DNA of 63,098 nucleotides, filler included. It is 12 parts of 12 records of this genome, joined end to end, with 100 filler letters (N's around TTAATTAATTAA, not from the genome) between each part and the next. Parts side by side here need not be neighbours in the genome. Positions count along the whole stretch, not along the records: positions 49,284 to 53,151 come from SRR7504441_8799; 11 more parts are not named here. One strand, 5' to 3'. Both the position numbers and the translations under genes were made by a program. The notes under the pieces are model-generated. The model was given only the letters and a program-made list of their open reading frames with translations. It made no database searches and was not told the DNA's origin. Below, piece after piece: positions 1,964-53,484 of this stretch (within the stretch, counting starts at the first letter, position 1; each line of letters starts with the position of its first letter).

Positions 1964-4900
1964 ATGTCTATTACCCGAGTAGTCTGGGCTCTGGCCCAGC
2001 TAGCTGTGCTGTCGAGCAGGCTGGCGGCGGGCGAGCTGTCTGCCCGGACGGTCCCGATGCAGGCCCCGTCCACCTTCACCGGTGCCCCGCCGCCCCCGCC
2101 ACCCCCAGCCGGCTGCTGCAACCCCGCCCCTGCTCACCTGGGTTACAGGTCAGTTCAACGACCCTGAGACCTCGACCGAGCATCCGCTGCTGCGGGTGCA
2201 CGTCAACGGCACGCTGTACAACATGCCCGCGTACGAGCCCGCCGGGATCGAGCCCAACCTGGACCAGACCGGCCCAGTGTCCGGGCAGCTGGTTCACCAC
2301 GTTGACTTGGCCACCGGCGAGCCGAGCAAGGGGTGCGAGAGCGCGGCCGGGCGGTACAACTACACCGAGAAGGTGGTGCTGGTGATCCGGGGCGATTGCC
2401 ACTTTGTGGCCAAGATCCGGAACATTCAGGCCGGCGGGGCGGCGGCGGTGATTGTTTACGACAACAAGCCGGAGGGCTGGGTGCACATGGCCTGGGACAA
2501 CACGATCCAGCCGGAGGTGCCGGCGGTGTTCATCCAGTACAACGAGGCGATGCACCTGCTGCACTACATGGGCATGGACAAAAACACCACAAACGGGTTT
2601 GAAGCCACGCTGCTCCCAGACAATGAGAACAGCCTGAGGTTCAGAGTCGACACGGTGGCCGCCCTCCCGAGCAACCCGGCGGTGCAGACAGTGACCGGCA
2701 CCGTCGAGGGCCGCCGCACCGTCGAGGGGCACATGGGCACTGATTACATGAAATACTCAGTCAGTGGCACCTTTGACACTCACACTGGCCGGCTTGTGGT
2801 GCAGCCTTTCCAGTGGATCACCAAGCCAGAGGACGATGATATATCCTGGATGGGGCTGGAGGGCACCGTGCTGCCGGAGGGGCACGCCATCCAGGGCAAG
2901 ATGACCCCTTACGAGGCTTACTTCCATATGCGGCTGGCCAACCCGTCTGACTGCCCGCCCAGCGTGGCCCAAGTGGCGCAGTGCCAGACAACCGGCGAGA
3001 ACGGCTACTGTGGGCAGGGCTGCCTCGAGGTGACGGACGAGAACGGGTACCGGGTGTTCAACGACGACAACTGCGAGTTCTCCCAGCCGCTAATGCATTA
3101 CTGCTCGATCAATGCACGAATCACCGGCGCTGAGTCCGACGACAGCACCTTCTCGTGCGAGGGAGAGCGTCTGGTGCTCAAGCCGCCGCTGGTGTCGCAG
3201 GCCAACGTCTGTCCGGCTGGCCAGTCCCAGAATTATCCATTTTTCACCGAGTGGCCGGTGGCTCGCTTCTTCCAGCCCTACGATTGGGACAAGATGACGG
3301 CCGGTGCGCCGGAGCACGGGAGCTTCTCAACCTACCTGTGCCGGACGGCCGACTGCGCCAACGCCACCGACAAGGAGTACGGCAAGGGCTGGCGGATGCG
3401 CGGCGGTTATGCTGACTCTGGCCCAACCAGACTGCCCAACTCGCAGTCAGTACTCGAGTACCACGTGCCGCACGTGAAGGCAGGCGCTGAGGTGCTGTTC
3501 ACGTACATCTCCAACGGCGAGCTCGGGTACGATTACCTCGAGTTCGAGGTGTGCCTCGAGGGGCGGGGCTGCACCACAGTTGAGAACTACAAGTACGACG
3601 ACGAGGCAAGCTGGCGGCGGGTAAAGGTGCGGCTGCAACAGGACGGAGAGTACTACCTCAAGTGGAAGTACATCAAGGATCAGGCGGTGGACGGCCGGAT
3701 GGATGAGGCCCGGCTGCTCCAGGTCGCTATCACTGGGTTCGACGACGATGCAGGCTGCAGGGCGTGCCCTGCAGATCATTGCTCCACAGGCAGAATCGAT
3801 GGATGCCAGAAGTGTTCGACTGGGACTAACTCCGCAGCGGGCTCACCCACCTGCACGGCCTGCCCCGGCGACCGGCCGATGAACTCTCACTACCAGATGT
3901 CCAACGAGCTCTCAAACTCTCCAACCGGGCAGAACTGTGCTGTGTTCTGTGACCCAGGGTACCAGGAGCATGGGTTCAACCAGGCCACCCTCCAGTGCAT
4001 CCCCCGACCGGACACCTGCCTGCTGCCCAAGGAGTCCTCATACGGCGGCAAGTTCGACCCACCGAGCATGAGCATGCTCAGGCAATGCTTCCAATTGAGG
4101 CACCCGATGCGCGACTACTGCGAGGACGCGCTCGAAACGCTCGAGGTCATCAATAAGATGAAGCAGCTGGACTCGCAGGTGCCGCTGCCCCGGCTGATCT
4201 GACCATTGCTGCAGAGCGCTTCTCGTGTCAAATTCTACCAAGATATTCACGAGCTGTATGAGACGCTCGAGGCTGCCAACAAGGCGGGCGACTGCACCAC
4301 AGTGTTCAAGACCGACTACGACTTCCATCAACGGATCCTCTCCCTGCTCCGTGCGACTCCGGACTCGAGCTACATCTACACCCCGCCGCTGTTCTATCAG
4401 AACCTGTTCCTGTACCTGCCAGTCCGCTTCAGGTACACTGGCAACCGTCAATCCGGTATCACAATCTTCATTGATTCGCTCACCGAGATGAGCCGCAAGT
4501 ATGGCAACCGTGGCTGGACACCGCACGTGCCAGTGATGGATTATGAAGTAGTCAAAGTCGACGGCGTCCCTGCCGGCCAAGCGTTTACTGCATTTGCTGA
4601 CTCACAGGTCGGCTACTCGCCAAATGCAAATGCTCGACTGGAGTTGGCTGTTCGTGGCGACTACCCTCAGCTCTGGGCGTGCTCCTTTAGCACCCGCAAC
4701 CTGGGCAAGTGCGGAGGAGACATATCAGATACTATGAAGCTGACGATCCGGAAAGATGGGAGCAGCCCGGAAATGGATGTGGTGTTCAAGTGGACTGTGA
4801 TGTACTTTGGAGAGGACTGCGACACTGCTGCTCCGTTGCACGAGACTGAGATGGATTCTGGGTCGTGCTCATACCACGAGCCTCACGACTGGCTCAACTG

Positions 4901-6614
4901 TGAAGGCTACAGCCATGCTCGTGGACGCGAGAAGAGCCATCAGGCAATCGCGGACGACGACTGGTGGATGGAGGACGTGAAGGAGGAGCTGCACAAGAGC
5001 TATTTCGACCACAAAGATCTGATGGACACGTCGGAGCTTTCGACCACTGCACACACCACTCACGAGATGAATGGGATGAGTCTCACTGTGCTCGATTCAT
5101 ACGAACACCTGGCAGCCTATGCCCATGTTGCCGACGACGACGCTGGCACCAAGACTGCTGTGATGCGAGTGGCTAGCTTCCATGGAGAAGCGAAGGAGAT
5201 GCATGCTGTTGTGATGGAGATTGCAGCGTTGGATGCCAACCGGTTGGTGATTGACTTGCGCACCAACGGCGGTGGGCACGCATGCCACGCCCTCAATCTG
5301 GCCTATCTGATCTCGAACAAATACGCCTCCCCAACCAGCCCTTCTGTCTCATTCGACTTTAAAAAGTCCGAAATGATGCAGCTGTTGGCCCTGAACCAGT
5401 CCTTCTTTGCCTCAGCTCACCCTGAGTTTCAATTGGATCCCCAGAACTTCCTCGACCCGACCACCACTCCTGGCACCCCGTTTGAGGACTCCAGCTGGTA
5501 TGGAGACGGCGTGGACGGCTTCACTGACCCTGTCTCGATCAACTGTGAGCGGTATTCGTCGCTGCTGGAATATTACGAGGATGACAAGAAGATGCACACT
5601 CGCAAGCTGCTCAATTTCGACCCGAGCAGAATTCAAGTGATCGTGGACGCCCAGTGCTACGGCGCGTGTGCGGTCTTTGCGATGCTTACAAAGCTCGATG
5701 GGTTCGGTACTCTGGTCGGTGTAGGCATCGACGAAGTAGGAGAAGCCCCGACGGTCATCGGGTCCGACTTGGATGGCCTGTTTTGCCAAAAGGAGGCCAT
5801 GAAGATCGAGGAGGACAAGTACCCAGAGGACCTCTTGTTCGAGTTCATGCCCAGCAGAGGCCAGAACCTGGTGATCCCTCTAAGCAGATCAGTAAGTGGC
5901 ACTACTCGTCGCTCCGACCGCCGGGCTGCTCCCCGGGCGACTGTCGACTTCATGTTGGATAGCGGCATCGCACGGAATGACTACGCTGAGGGCAAATGGT
6001 ACTCTGGCATGCCCTTGTACTGCGAAGCCATCAGGCACTTCAGCAAATCCACCTCCAAATACAAGCCACAATGCCCCCACTGCACCGAAAAGGAGTGCAG
6101 CGATGCTGCCAAGAGAGGCTTTGGGGTTGGCTGGGCCTTCTTCTTTATCATCCTTGGGATGCTGATCATTCCGTGTTTTGGTGGGATTGCCTATTTCTTC
6201 TATCAGCACGGCTGCTCGAAGGATACCTTCCTCGGAATACTCGACGGCGCTGGCAGCTGCTTTGGCCATATCGCCAACCTTTGCTCACGGGGCTATTACT
6301 ACTGTAAGTCACTGTGTTTCCGGCCTGGAGGTCGGTACGGCACTCTGTCGTCAGACGAGTCCGCTGAGGGCGGATCGCAGCCATGCTGCCACGGGGGCTT
6401 CGACTGGCGGTCTTGGGTGCCTGGCATGCGCGGCTCGGCCCTGGAGGACCAGTACAGCGGACTCCAGGTCGACCCCGTGCAGAGCGAGCTCATGCCAGCA
6501 GGGACCGGCATTCCGCCGCCGATGAATGTGCAGCCTACTAGTGGGCCTGCCCAGCTCGAGATTGAGAGCAACCTGGACAGCTACGCTCAGGTGCGCTCTG
6601 ATCGCTGTGGCTAG
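1964..6614 (+). CDS. Large type I membrane protein: signal peptide, PA domain, Cys-rich region, S41-peptidase-like domain, TM, cytoplasmic tail; introns 2082-2148 and 4179-4214
   Basis: PA motif KVVLVIRGDCHFVAKIRNIQAGGAAAVIVYDN. S41-type LVIDLRTNGGG. TM GVGWAFFFIILGMLIIPCFGGIAYFF. A 36-nt GT-AG intron removes the TGA at 4200. Confidence 0.75.
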
Positions 6615-7577: not shown

Positions 7578-7677
7578 NNNNNNNNNNNNNNNNNNNNNNN
7601 NNNNNNNNNNNNNNNNNNNNNTTAATTAATTAANNNNNNNNNNNNNNNNNNNNNNNNNNNNNNNNNNNNNNNNNNNN
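7578..7677. other. Artificial contig linker N44-TTAATTAATTAA-N44 (also 17580-17679, 23997-24096, 28845-28944, 32801-32900, 39300-39399, 44531-44630, 49184-49283, 53152-53251, 56566-56665, 59939-60038)
   Basis: Identical 100-nt spacer with stops in all six frames, present 11 times; genes are truncated at it. Confidence 0.98.
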
Positions 7678-16772: not shown

Positions 16773-17679
16773 CTTTAGGTGTGAATCGTATGCAAGAACC
16801 AATCACTCTACAAGATTTCACTCAGTCAGTGTAACCACACCTTTGCACTCGATTTAGGATCCTGATCAAAATTTCAATGGATGTGCCATCATCTATAGTG
16901 TGGCTAAACAGGCTCGCAATTGCAAGACTCGCTGCCGCGCTACTTATTTTAATTAAAACAGAAATACCAAGCTTATAAAATTATACTCGTACGAGGAGCT
17001 GATCGGATTACAATCGTTAAGACAATTGGTGACTATGCGTAGAAACTTTATGATGAGAGTGGAGTTGGGAGAAAAGAGTAACAAACTCTATTCCGGCTAC
17101 CGGTAGCTAGTAATAGTTACAATATCGATAATAACTATTGTATGTCATGAGATGGTTCCCAGATACGGGCGCCGAGGCCAGGTGAACGGCCAGGATGGTG
17201 TACTGCCGCGTTGCAGCTTCTAGCGCTCCCTTCGGTTCGCTGCGTGGACCATGATGAACGAGGTGCGCACCATAAAGATGTGATGAGCTCTGACTTCTGC
17301 GCAGGCCGTCCTGCAGCTGGTCGTCGCGCACGTCGGCCCTGGTACCGGTAGCAACGATGGAGCTCTCAGGGAGGAAGCTCGGATCGTTTACAAGGGACTG
17401 TGGTGCGTGTGCCGTGACTTCCGGCGCTGGATCAGCTCGGCCTGCACCTGGCTCGCATGGCCCGGAAGGCCCGGTGCCTATCCAACCGTGCTGCAAAAGT
17501 CCACCACTGATCAGCATGGGCACAGACAACCGTCTCGGGGAGAAAGGAGGGTTTGCGGCGCTGGAGCCTGCACTGAGGCNNNNNNNNNNNNNNNNNNNNN
17601 NNNNNNNNNNNNNNNNNNNNNNNTTAATTAATTAANNNNNNNNNNNNNNNNNNNNNNNNNNNNNNNNNNNNNNNNNNNN

Positions 17680-49283: not shown

Positions 49284-49965
49284 GGGGGGGGGGGCTGGCG
49301 GGGGAGCATGCTTCAACGGATGGCCAAGGGAAGCCTCCAGCTCTGCCGAGGCGGGTGCGACCCCGCCACCCGGAAGCAACTGTGCAAGACACCAACCGTC
49401 CTCCCGCTCCCCGCGGGGCCCCGGGCGCTCGTTGGGGTCAAGTCGCGGCTCATGTCGGTGGGCTGTCCGTTAATGTCCGTTGGATCACCTGCTGACGGCA
49501 GGCCACTGGGAGCAGCCCCTACCAAGAGCAGCTGGAGGTGCGGGTGGGCAACGGCGGCCGCTGGTGCGACCGCGAGCAACAGCCGGGTGGGTCCGTTGGT
49601 GTCCGTTGGCTGACTCCCGTCCAGGCTGGGTGGGTCACGGCTTCTTGCCCCGCCGCGACTGGATCGGGCGAGTCACGCCGGCGTCTAGCATGTGCGCTCC
49701 GGTGCACGAGCACACAAGGCCTATAGTCTACCATAAGGCGTGTGGGGCGCCCCCGCAAGTGGCTTTCACCTCCACCCCACCTCGCCGGCCGGGCTCGGCC
49801 CCGGTGAGTCGGGCGGTGCTGCGGGAGCGCCAGCTGCTGGCCGAGTCGGGGCCTGTCGAGATCGAGCCTGATCCGCAGTCGCAGTCGTCCCAGTTTAGCT
49901 GGGCGCGGCTCGATTACTTCAGAGGCTGGGCTGACGTGGATAGCGTGGATAAATACTTGCACTGA
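49284..49965 (+). CDS. 3' part of a hypothetical protein; two introns with CCGTT repeats (49442-49501, 49587-49624)
   Basis: Splicing gives one frame ending WARLDYFRGWADVDSVDKYLH*. Confidence 0.4.
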
Positions 49966-50108
49966 CGCGTATATGTACCCCCGCCGCTACATGCATACTA
50001 GACATAATCAATTCGTCAGTACTCCTGACCACAGTACTAGTACTCGGCGTCAGTGCTGACTCTATTTTGGTCCGCGGTGAGCCATAACGGCAAAGGAGGC
50101 GCAGCGGA

Positions 50109-52897
50109 ATGCCTGCGGGCTGGCACACGTACAGCTGGGGCTCGGTGTCCAACGGCACCCTAGGGTACGACGACCTGCCGTTATCGACCCCGGAGCCTGA
50201 CCGGCGCCAGCCTCACCCGCGCGAGGTGCCCGGGCTGCGCGGCACCGCCATCACGCTCATTACTTCCTCTGAGCACTTTTCGCTGGCCGCCTCCAGCGAC
50301 GGCGCCCTGTACTCATGGGGCTATGCCGACTTTGGGCGGCTGGGGCACGGGAATATGCCGTTACCGGTCGAGGGCGAGTCGCCTGCCGGGCCGTACTTGC
50401 TCGCCCCGGACGGAATCTCGCCCTGGATCCCATCCCCGAAGAGGGTGATGGCGCTGGCCGGCCAGGCTGTGATATCCATCTCCTGCGGGCTCGAGCACGC
50501 CCTGGCGGCCACCCGGGAGGGCCGGCTCTACTCGTGGGGCGGAGCTATTTACGGGCGGCTCGGGCACCAGGATGGCGTGATAGATCAGCTGCCGATTGAC
50601 GAGGAGGGCGGCTCGTGCGTAACGGACGGCCCAACGGAGAGCGAGCGGAGGGCAGGTACTTGCCGACCCCGCGGGTGGTGGACGCGCTGCTGGGTAAGGC
50701 GGTGGTTGCGGTTGCCTGTGGCGAGGTTCATTCGCTGGCAATCGCTGAAGGTGCCGCCGGAATATTATTATTACTGATTACTGTTTATCAATGAGGGCTC
50801 ACCGGGTGGGGGCAGGGAAAGTATACTGCTGGGGCTGCGCGTCGTACGGCCGGCTCGGACTGCCGACCGACCGACTGATCACGCTGCCACGTGACGAGGA
50901 CGACGAGCAGGTGGTTGCCTAATTAGGCAGGTGTGACGTCCCGCAGTTTGCGCCTACGCCGATGGAGATTCCGTCGCTAACGGATATAATGCACATAGGG
51001 TCAGGGATTCTGCACTCTCTGGCGGTGTGCAAAGCCGGCAAGGTATCTGCGCGCGGCTGTCGGCGGTGTGCAAACCCGGCCAGGTATTTGCGTGGGGCTG
51101 TGCTTCGTTTGGGTGTCTGGGACTCGGAGGTGAGCCCATAGCACACATGGAGAAATATGAGGACGACGAGGTCCCAACGGCATTTAACGGCATTCTAACG
51201 GACGTGTGGGGGGCAGAGTGGGCCGTACCAGCCGACGCCGATGCAGGTGACGGCGCTCGAAGGCGAGTTTGTGGTCGCGGTCGAGTGTGACGAGGTGTTG
51301 CCTAATAAGGAAGCTGTGACGTCCCGCAGGTCCACTCATTGGCACTCACTAAGCAAGGAGCGGTATTCGCATGGGGATGGTGCACCCCCCGGCCAGCCCC
51401 CTCTGAGCCAGCCGCAGCGCTAGCTACGGGAGACTTGGTCTTTCCCAAACAGCTGACTGTAGCGGCCTCGCGAGCTCGGAACTAGGAAGCTTCGAACCGG
51501 CGCCGCGACGGGTGCCGGGCCTAACGGACATCCAGGCGGCTTCACTGGCCGGTTGGTGGGTGACGGCTGGTCTAGGCAATTGTGTGTGGGCGGGCGCACT
51601 CGCTGGCGCTGACTAGAAGCGGGTCTGTGTACGCTTGGGGGTCTGCGGATCACGGGAGGCTTGGCATCGAGTCCCAACTGTATTCTAACGGCATTTTAAC
51701 GGTAATGTGGCAGGTCGAGCCCACCGGACGAGCCGGAGGCATCGCTCCAGCCTAGCCCGGCCCTGGTCTCCTGCCTGGACGGTGAGGGCTTGTTTTATAA
51801 ATATATTCCGTTATAGAGTTGGTTGGTAGGTGGTGTGGTGACGGTGATCGGGTGTGGGTACCGGCAGTCATTTGCAGTGCAGAGAGTCGGGTGGGTCGGG
51901 TGGCTGCGGCCGCTGAGCAGGTGGCAGCTCGGAACTGGAGACGCATCTCGGCGGGTTGATTAATGCACCAGAGTTTGCGGATGTGGCGTTTGTTTTCGAG
52001 GGCGGGTCCAAGGTGCTCGCACATAGGTGCATCTTGGCCGCTCGGGCACAATACTTTGCCAAGGTGAGCACATGCTGTAATTGTTATGTATAGTACTCGT
52101 TATATGCTGCTAGTATCCGAGCTTGGCGGTTGGTGTAGTGTTTCAGCTCGTAGCACTGTGCTGCTGCCAGTAGTATATGGTACTAGCATTTGGGGGCGCA
52201 GTGTTTCAGCTCGGCGATGCTCGAAGGGAGCAGCACAGGCCCGGTGATCGAGCTTCAGATTGCCGTTAAATGCCGTTAGGTGCTCGAGCTTCAGATCGCG
52301 GAGGCGGCTGAGACGGATATGCGAAGGCTGCTTCACTGGCTGTACACGGGGGAGGTGGCACCAGGACAGGGTCGGAGCGATGATGAGAGTGACAGGTGAG
52401 CCTAAGTGAGGAGCCGGAGGCGGCGACGGAGCAAGCGCTGAGCCTACTCCGTCTGGCGGACAGGTCACACCTTCTCGATTAGGAGATGGCATAGCTTAAC
52501 ACCTTCCTGATTAGGGAATGAGCTGTGACCGGTCGCAGGTTTGTGATTGTGCAGCTCAAGCACCAGCTCACGCCGCTGCTCACCGGCCAGCTGAGCGTAA
52601 CCAACGTCCTCACCGTCCTGCAGGTGCCCCAGCCGCATCCCAACCGCCATCCAACGCGTGTGTACACAGGCCGCCGACCATTTCAACGCTGCCCAGTGCC
52701 GCCGGGCTGCCATCGACTTCATTCTGGTCCATTTTCAACAAGTCAAGAAAGCCACCCAGTGCTTCGTCCAGCTGGCCCGATCCCCCGAATGCGCGCACTT
52801 GCTCTCGGAAATATTCCGGCCGTTAGAGTCGCCGCTCCAGAGCCGGGCGGCCGCGCACGACCAGGCGGCGCTCAGTGTGCCGCCTGGGCACGTATAG
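50109..52897 (+). CDS. RCC1-repeat + BTB/POZ(-BACK) protein, about 15 introns
   Basis: Repeats LYSWGYADFGRLG, ISCGLEHALA, ACGEVHSLA, VFAWGCASFGCLG; BTB LAHRCILAARAQYF..FSSAMLE..LLHWLYTG..LLRLADRF. Confidence 0.88.
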
Positions 52898-53484
52898 CCC
52901 GGCTGGTTGCTGTCCGAGAGGTTTCACAGATAAATGCGCAGCTAAATTATAGTAAGCGACTCGTAAGCGACTCGTGCGATCCAAACAAAGCATGAATGGG
53001 GCTCGGGTTGCGCTTCCATTCTAGCTACACTCGTCTGTACGGTACCTGATTTATTAGTCGAATTTCATATTAATTAAGCACTTACACACGGATGTATACC
53101 ATCGCTAGCAAGTGAGTAGGCATGTTTATTGAGTCTTCATGTCTACCCGACNNNNNNNNNNNNNNNNNNNNNNNNNNNNNNNNNNNNNNNNNNNNTTAAT
53201 TAATTAANNNNNNNNNNNNNNNNNNNNNNNNNNNNNNNNNNNNNNNNNNNNCCATTTTCCGGACCAGACCGTATGCTGACGACCAGACCGGGACCAGACC
53301 GAGCCCACCCGCGGCCGACGGAGGGCTCGGCAGGGCCGGGGCGCGGCTGGGCTGGTGCCGGATGGGCCGCCGCACCACCCCTAGCCAGCTCCACCTCCCC
53401 GGAACCCACGTTCCGCCGCCTTCTCCATCTCCGCTTGAGAGCACCGCCATCGTCGCTTTCTCAACCCCGCTTATTTTTACTTTG

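Follow-up and report, generated by a model that had tools for sequence, protein, structure and literature searches.

The 63,098-nucleotide (nt) stretch of DNA analyzed here, referred to as the window, joins 12 contigs of 3.1–9.9 kilobases (kb) each, and one of them, at positions 49284–53151, carries a gene for RCC1 repeats and a BTB domain in which a short exonic segment occurs twice in tandem. The gene runs on the plus strand from a start codon at 50109 to a stop codon at 52895–52897 (50109–52897), and in our model it comprises 17 exons and 16 introns (I1, I2 and so on), with a coding sequence of 1983 nt that specifies 660 amino acids. The duplication, of 41 base pairs (bp), reaches from the end of exon 4 into exon 5, and we suggest that the 41 nt lying between these exons (51043–51083) form an intron, I4, that may owe its origin to the duplication. 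The contigs are separated by spacers of 44 N, TTAATTAATTAA and 44 N (for example at 7578–7677 and 17580–17679, with nine more), and the true genomic context of the duplication is 49284–53151 only (3868 nt, GC content 0.616). This contig comes from a eukaryote whose DNA is rich in GC and whose introns are very short.

Single exons of the gene match Pfam RCC1 (PF00415, E=3.1e-24) and BTB (PF00651, E=1.6e-05), and the arrangement of RCC1 repeats followed by a BTB domain corresponds to an RCBTB-like architecture, with the same precomputed domains in the orthologues. A search of the protein collection with exon 1 returned 67 matches, including two close relatives, P0001 (626 amino acids, 74% identical to the query, on a 2181-nt contig) and P0002 (618 amino acids, 46% identical, on a 1870-nt contig); because these contigs are so short, both relatives must be essentially uninterrupted, transcript-like sequences. 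The gene model was guided by tblastn with P0001; its spliced product is free of internal stops and can be aligned over the whole length both with P0001 (428/615 identical) and with P0002 (292/594). Around the duplication, tblastn and the model place exon 4 at 50947–51042 (plus strand, 32 codons, ending in AAG) and exon 5 at 51084–51170 (plus strand, 29 codons), the latter containing the Trp-Gly ... Gly-x-Leu-Gly core of RCC1 blade 5 and being colinear with P0001 and P0002 without a gap. Downstream of the I4 junction the coding sequence continues for 1188 nt without a stop, and 258 of 390 aligned residues match P0001. Further searches added no relative: P0001 found 15 loci in metagenome contigs, all at most 34% identical and none orthologous, an exact 28-nt pattern across the exon 4/I4 junction had no match in the collections of genome contigs and viral contigs, and the protein collection held no closer relative for the read-through open reading frame at 50937–51287 or for 51045–51170, blanks that are weak evidence.

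Tandem Repeats Finder assigned 51021–51101 a period of 41 with 2.0 copies, 87% matches and no indels, and its score of 127 was the highest among the 24 rows for the whole window. By direct count, copy 1 (51021–51061) and copy 2 (51062–51102), both on the plus strand, are identical at 35 of 41 positions while the flanks on both sides show no similarity, in agreement with the first-pass annotation, which had described the same duplication from the letters alone. When the window was scanned for direct repeats (offsets 20–150, at least 17 matches in 20), 10 rows at 9 sites were obtained, compared with seven in total over 20 block shuffles used as control (0–2 per shuffle), and the 41-bp duplicate is far beyond chance. 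Five other short-range duplicates, at 3593, 12539, 18324, 23738 and 25795, have offsets of 144, 60, 33, 144 and 30, all multiples of 3, unlike 41, and, judged by coordinates, they sit within long open frames.

The two copies share out the exons and the putative intron in a simple manner. Exon 4 ends with the first 22 nt of copy 1, whose remaining 19 nt form the 5' part of the intron; the 3' part of the intron is then supplied by the first 22 nt of copy 2, and the final 19 nt of that copy begin exon 5. Copy 1 reads AAG/GT, with the donor GT at 51043, and copy 2 reads CAG/GT, with the acceptor AG at 51082–51083, so the earlier description of a unit that spans an AG/GT, with AAG in copy 1 and CAG at the acceptor, was also correct. 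In alignments with the orthologues and with the paralogous repeats, the two copies fall on the same codons, which identifies the segment as a head-to-tail duplicate of ancestrally exonic sequence, and the exonic 19 nt of copy 2 retain the Phe and Trp codons found in the paralogous repeats and the orthologues. The periodicity of the RCC1 fold was considered as a source of the repeat and ruled out, because a period of 41 nt is not the RCC1 blade length.

If the 41 extra bases are read through, the frame shifts and runs into a stop. To compare the ways out of this shift, we listed all GT/GC...AG removals of 15–150 nt within 50947–51170 after which the exon stays open and in frame, 71 options altogether, and scored them against P0001. 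Removal of 51043–51083 (plus strand, GTA...CAG, phase 0, exactly one repeat period) ranked first with a score of 221 and 61 amino acids against 61, and the second-best option, which uses a GC donor and adds two residues, scored 209. The first-pass annotation had proposed that this removal restores the RCC1 repeat, a claim borne out by its rank and by the alignment, which is free of gaps at the junction in both P0001 and P0002. Since the spliced product is colinear with both orthologues there and no residues are missing, intronization of coding sequence without a duplication was rejected. The length of 41 nt equals the repeat period, falls within a range of 35–48 nt and is matched by two other introns of the gene, and the RNA structure of I4 shows nothing unusual (z = 0.02).

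The frame could be rescued in another way, by retaining the 41 nt and joining a donor at 51130 (GTGAGC) to the I5 acceptor at 51216, which would remove an 87-nt intron. Such a junction keeps the frame without meeting a stop, and the donor at 51130 looks good, but 29 conserved exon 5 residues, with the Trp-Gly and Gly-x-Leu-Gly core of both orthologues, would be replaced by unrelated sequence, and the conserved frame of 51084–51170 would be left unexplained. The option is in frame because 51130–51170 is also 41 nt long. We give this alternative next to no weight; the open frame that it creates is probably a coincidence, although it could also reflect a cryptic isoform.

The differences between the copies allowed us to ask which copy had changed. 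They lie at unit positions 14 and 20, where the 3' half of the putative intron is compared with the end of exon 4, and at 27, 32, 34 and 41, where its 5' half is compared with the start of exon 5. With the orthologues P0001 and P0002 and five paralogous repeats as the reference, five of the six differences (20, 27, 32, 34 and 41) could be polarized, and in each of them the derived state is on the intronic side, with no derived change in an exonic half; position 14 is not polarizable. The exonic copy retains an aromatic codon, a Trp codon and the G that opens an Ala codon, on which all five paralogous repeats and both orthologues agree, and the intronic copy carries Ser- and Arg-like triplets in place of the aromatic and Trp codons, so that the invariant Trp codon is lost there. 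Position 20 falls in a Lys codon in the exon, in agreement with P0001 and the neighboring repeat, and a C at this position in the intron gives CAG. Were the two copies equally free to change, a 5:0 split would have a probability of ~0.03 by our arithmetic. The confinement of derived changes to the intronic halves is thus internal evidence that the 41 nt are not translated.

To place I4 among its neighbors, we compared the 16 modeled introns, whose lengths are 35, 36, 36, 37, 38, 40, 41, 41, 41, 43, 46, 46, 48, 65, 75 and 138 nt, so that 13 of them fall between 35 and 48 nt, at a density of ~8 introns per kb of coding sequence. Donors are GTG in eleven, GTC in three, GC in one and GTA in I4, and acceptors are CAG in thirteen, I4 included, TAG in three and AAG in none. 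The other introns carry YAAC or TGAC motifs 11–20 nt upstream of the 3' end, which may be branch-like sites, and in I4 there are A residues 10–12 nt ahead of the 3' end. The two substitutions in the 3' half of I4 both go toward the signals of the other introns: one changes AAG to a CAG acceptor and the other changes CAAAG to CAAAC, at the place where other introns carry CCAAC, CTAAC or TTAAC. These changes would fit a weakly spliced newborn intron that was later improved, and they would equally fit chance, the sample being too small to separate the two. The first-pass annotation had further supposed that such duplications could be spliced immediately; this is doubtful, because an exact duplicate would end in AAG, an acceptor used by none of the 16 modeled introns.

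Two further observations were made on the splice sites of this gene. In 8 of 16 cases a GT opens the exon that follows the intron, and in 10 of 16 an AG closes the exon that precedes it (n=16, no background); AG/GT on both sides of an intron is what duplication or target-site models would lead one to expect. I8 (51536–51575) is a 40-nt GC-AG intron in the model, the sole frame-keeping option that matches the orthologue length, as the GT alternatives either break the frame or are 16 nt long.

The pattern of substitutions also bears on a less favorable account, in which the duplication is an unspliced and disabling frameshift, marking a young pseudogene, a deleterious allele, or an amplification or assembly artefact. 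The contig is short and starts with a poly-G run, and the stop met by the read-through frame would be in keeping with a disabled gene. Artefactual duplications, however, normally come without differences between the copies, and here the copies differ at 6 of 41 positions, with all five polarizable changes in the would-be intronic halves. A decayed gene is likewise hard to reconcile with the 15 other modeled introns, all of which retain usable GT/GC-AG boundaries, or with the stop-free downstream coding sequence: in a substitution-only simulation, which assumes that the six copy differences are point mutations that followed the duplication, a neutral copy would stay open over 1188 nt with P = 0.055 at 7.3% divergence and P = 0.004 at 14.6%. 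We therefore consider this account unlikely. The poly-G run itself occupies 49284–49294 (11 G), and runs of this kind are common at contig ends in short-read assemblies.

It could also be argued that the intron is old and only its sequence is young, that is, that an older intron stood at or beside this site and its content was overwritten later, when a local event of templated repair or conversion copied in sequence from the exons on either side. I2, in the preceding RCC1 repeat, lies 5 nt from the homologous site in another phase, and other introns of the gene hold patches copied from neighboring exons or introns (described below), both of which would agree with such a history. It requires two events where one suffices, though, and I4 is exactly one period long and contains nothing but two half-copies, with no sequence in common between I2 and I4. 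Taken together, an overwritten older intron appears quite improbable. A derivation of I4 from an introner or transposon was rejected as well: the repeat search of the contig turned up the tandem partner of I4 and nothing else, the copies adjoin without an insert, and no terminal inverted repeats were found (63 kb).

Several points weigh against I4 being an intron born from the duplication, and they should be set beside the evidence above. Its GTA donor is unique among the 16 modeled introns. With I2 of the neighboring repeat only 5 nt from the homologous position, albeit in a different phase, an older intron near the I4 site is not unthinkable. The gene model depends on two orthologous proteins and on our own choices of splice sites, and the boundaries of I8 (as GC-AG), I11 and I13 are ambiguous, the choice being made among near-equivalent options. 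The absence of I4 from relatives would follow only from how young the duplicate appears (85% identity) when set beside an orthologue whose protein has already diverged by 30%, and an assembly or amplification artefact would be countered only by the six mismatches and the short span. With these points included, a duplication-born intron of 41 nt at 51043–51083 is still the best explanation in our judgment, with a probability of roughly 0.68. The central proposal of the first-pass annotation, an intron created by duplication of an AGGT-containing segment, may thus be kept as a candidate, favored by colinearity with the orthologues, by the best frame-restoring splice, by typical length and dinucleotides, by the derived changes in the intronic halves and by the open downstream frame, but without its corollary of immediate splicing.

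From these data, we propose the following course of events. A segment of the blade 5 exon, 41 bp long or 40 bp with one filler base, and carrying an exonic AAG/GT, would have been duplicated head to tail. Because the segment contained this AAG/GT, copy 1 would supply the GT donor (51043) and copy 2 the AG acceptor (51083) exactly one period apart. With introns mostly of 35–48 nt in this genome, the spliceosome would then remove a 41-nt piece in which the final 19 nt of copy 1 are followed by the initial 22 nt of copy 2, leaving the messenger RNA and the protein as they were before the duplication. The intronic halves may afterwards have drifted or been tuned, and the exonic halves would have stayed under constraint at the level of the protein. 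As the duplication junction shows no microhomology, the duplication might have arisen by fill-in of staggered nicks or by end joining. We infer the splicing in vivo, the restriction of the intron to this lineage and the route of duplication from the arrangement of the sequence.

Other introns of the same gene were examined for similar traces. We compared the donor region with the acceptor region of each of the 16 introns at an offset equal to the intron length, and found a junction-spanning repeat in two, I4 (35/40) and I13 (17/18); the other 14 introns reached at most 7 score points, a level met by 14% of random placements. The repeat at I13 (52243–52299, plus strand) consists of 52243–52263 and 52279–52299, which match at 19 of 21 positions with an offset of 36. 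An in-frame TAG at 52277–52279 makes I13 obligatory, and four choices of its boundaries score alike (52244–52279, 52265–52303, 52262–52294 and 52265–52294). Between the repeat copies stand 16 nt that match the core of I5 in inverted orientation (an inverted pair of 30 nt, 87%). In I12 (52064–52201, 138 nt), a copied acceptor is found inside the intron: the acceptor together with the first 12 nt of exon 13 (52195–52213) recurs 63 nt upstream at 52132–52150 with 17 of 19 matches (52132–52213, plus strand).

Two families of related introns were also found. I3 (50911–50946, plus strand, 36 nt) and I6 (51295–51329, plus strand, 35 nt) are near-identical, 91% over 33 nt, and occupy non-homologous positions in their RCC1 repeats between unrelated flanking exons; a search with their pattern gave 2 matches in the window compared with 0 expected. 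The 3' end (52519–52538) of a 75-nt intron at 52464–52538 resembles them at 16 of 20 positions, no copy of this type lies outside the RCC1-BTB gene within the 63 kb, and the consensus pattern of I3 and I6 had no match in the collection of genome contigs. The second family includes I5 (51171–51216, plus strand, 46 nt), built of tandem 10–11-nt units that contain AACGG, and the related I9 (51671–51713, plus strand, 43 nt). The motif AACGG-N(4-7)-AACGG occurs 8 times in the window, compared with 0.22 expected, and 7 of the 8 occurrences are on the contig at 49284–53151, all in modeled or candidate introns (49467–49481, 49593–49607, 50621–50637, 51176–51201, 51687–51702 and 52263–52277). Four of the seven pairs are on the plus strand and three on the minus strand, implying that the motif is not simply a branch site, and the two upstream minus-strand pairs are located ahead of the start codon, within GT...AG pieces of 37 and 34 nt. 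A hairpin in I15 is weak (z = -1.79), and we estimate that its 20-nt inverted match (16/20) is close to what chance would give.

The RCC1-BTB gene thus appears, on its sequence, to bear signs of local intron turnover beyond I4. A broader reading is that, in this minimal-intron lineage, short local duplications and templated patches have given rise to introns again and again, with tuning afterwards, so that a single 2.8-kb gene would record several such events: the exon duplicate of I4, a ~20-nt exon copy and an inverted 16-nt copy of the I5 core in I13, the acceptor copy in I12, and the two intron families. In this broader reading, the substitutions in the 3' half of I4 would be adaptive improvements. 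We offer it tentatively and hold it to be possible rather than probable.

The contigs of the window range in GC content from 0.48 to 0.65, and with such a spread they need not be neighbors, nor even come from one organism. An Rfam search of the whole window gave no match, and Pfam assigned ten other open reading frames to ordinary families; an open reading frame for homoserine dehydrogenase matches bacterial clusters only in the protein atlas. In the first contig, a gene at 2004–6614 has a 4.6-kb frame that is open except for one in-frame TGA, which falls inside a 36-nt GT...AG piece, within 4170–4230, that is likely a lone mini-intron. With this lone candidate in a 4.6-kb frame, intron density would differ greatly between genes.

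The model put forward by Rogers in 1989 describes the geometry by which duplication of an AGGT provides both splice sites (PMC4974935), and I4 fits this route, in that a duplicate is present, the AG/GT stands in the required arrangement and removal of one unit is predicted to restore the frame. Natural cases have been described in vertebrate ATP2A1 (PMC3265369), in two fission-yeast genes with 24-nt units (PMC3629103) and in a potato RdRp variant (PMC4974935), and the gain of an intron is taken as proven when a phylogeny shows it to be absent in outgroups (PMC4974935). In ATP2A1, as predicted for I4, a duplicated exonic AGGT gives both splice sites and the protein is unchanged upon splicing (PMC3265369). 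That gain, however, dates back more than 420 million years, and conserved protein-coding constraints were used to infer its duplication, which was also re-enacted by experiment (PMC3265369), whereas the copies at I4 retain 85% identity, and the candidate intron measures only 41 nt and has no polypyrimidine tract.

The fission-yeast introns likewise come from tandem repeats of a nearby exon in a short-intron organism, with units that are not identical, and the authors also argued from the differences between units against an artefact (PMC3629103). Their units are 24 nt long, the intron spans two or four of them, and there is partial support from expressed sequence tags (PMC3629103); I4, by contrast, corresponds to just one unit of 41 nt, a length not divisible by 3, so that splicing is obligatory for the frame. 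The repeat in I12, with an acceptor and exon start copied inside the intron, resembles the potato RdRp variant (Ma, Lan & Niu 2016, PMC4974935), in which the duplicate carried the 3' part of an existing intron together with exon sequence and most signals were inherited, unlike the purely exon-derived I4. The sharing of sequence by I3 and I6, and by I1, I5, I9 and I13, at non-homologous sites and in both orientations is reminiscent of introners (Gozashti et al. 2022, PMC9860276; Amoebophrya, PMC7789003). I4 differs from these elements, as it has no other copy in the window, its sole relative is its own flanking exon, and it has neither terminal inverted repeats nor a separate insert.

The origin of new spliceosomal introns is a long-standing question, and most documented gains come without an identifiable source sequence; in fission yeast, a source was found for only 2 of 62 gains (PMC3629103). 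In I4, both parental half-copies are still legible, and the mutational event, the starting splice signals (an AAG acceptor with no pyrimidine tract) and the later changes can be read from them. Given a culture of the organism or RNA data from it, the case would allow a direct test of whether a bare exon duplicate is spliceable in a minimal-intron genome, and of which substitutions improve its splicing. I4 would therefore be an addition to a known but sparsely documented kind of intron gain, a candidate that is unusually legible because both half-copies survive, and the clustering of locally copied intron sequences in one gene hints that this lineage may be well suited to watching the birth of introns.

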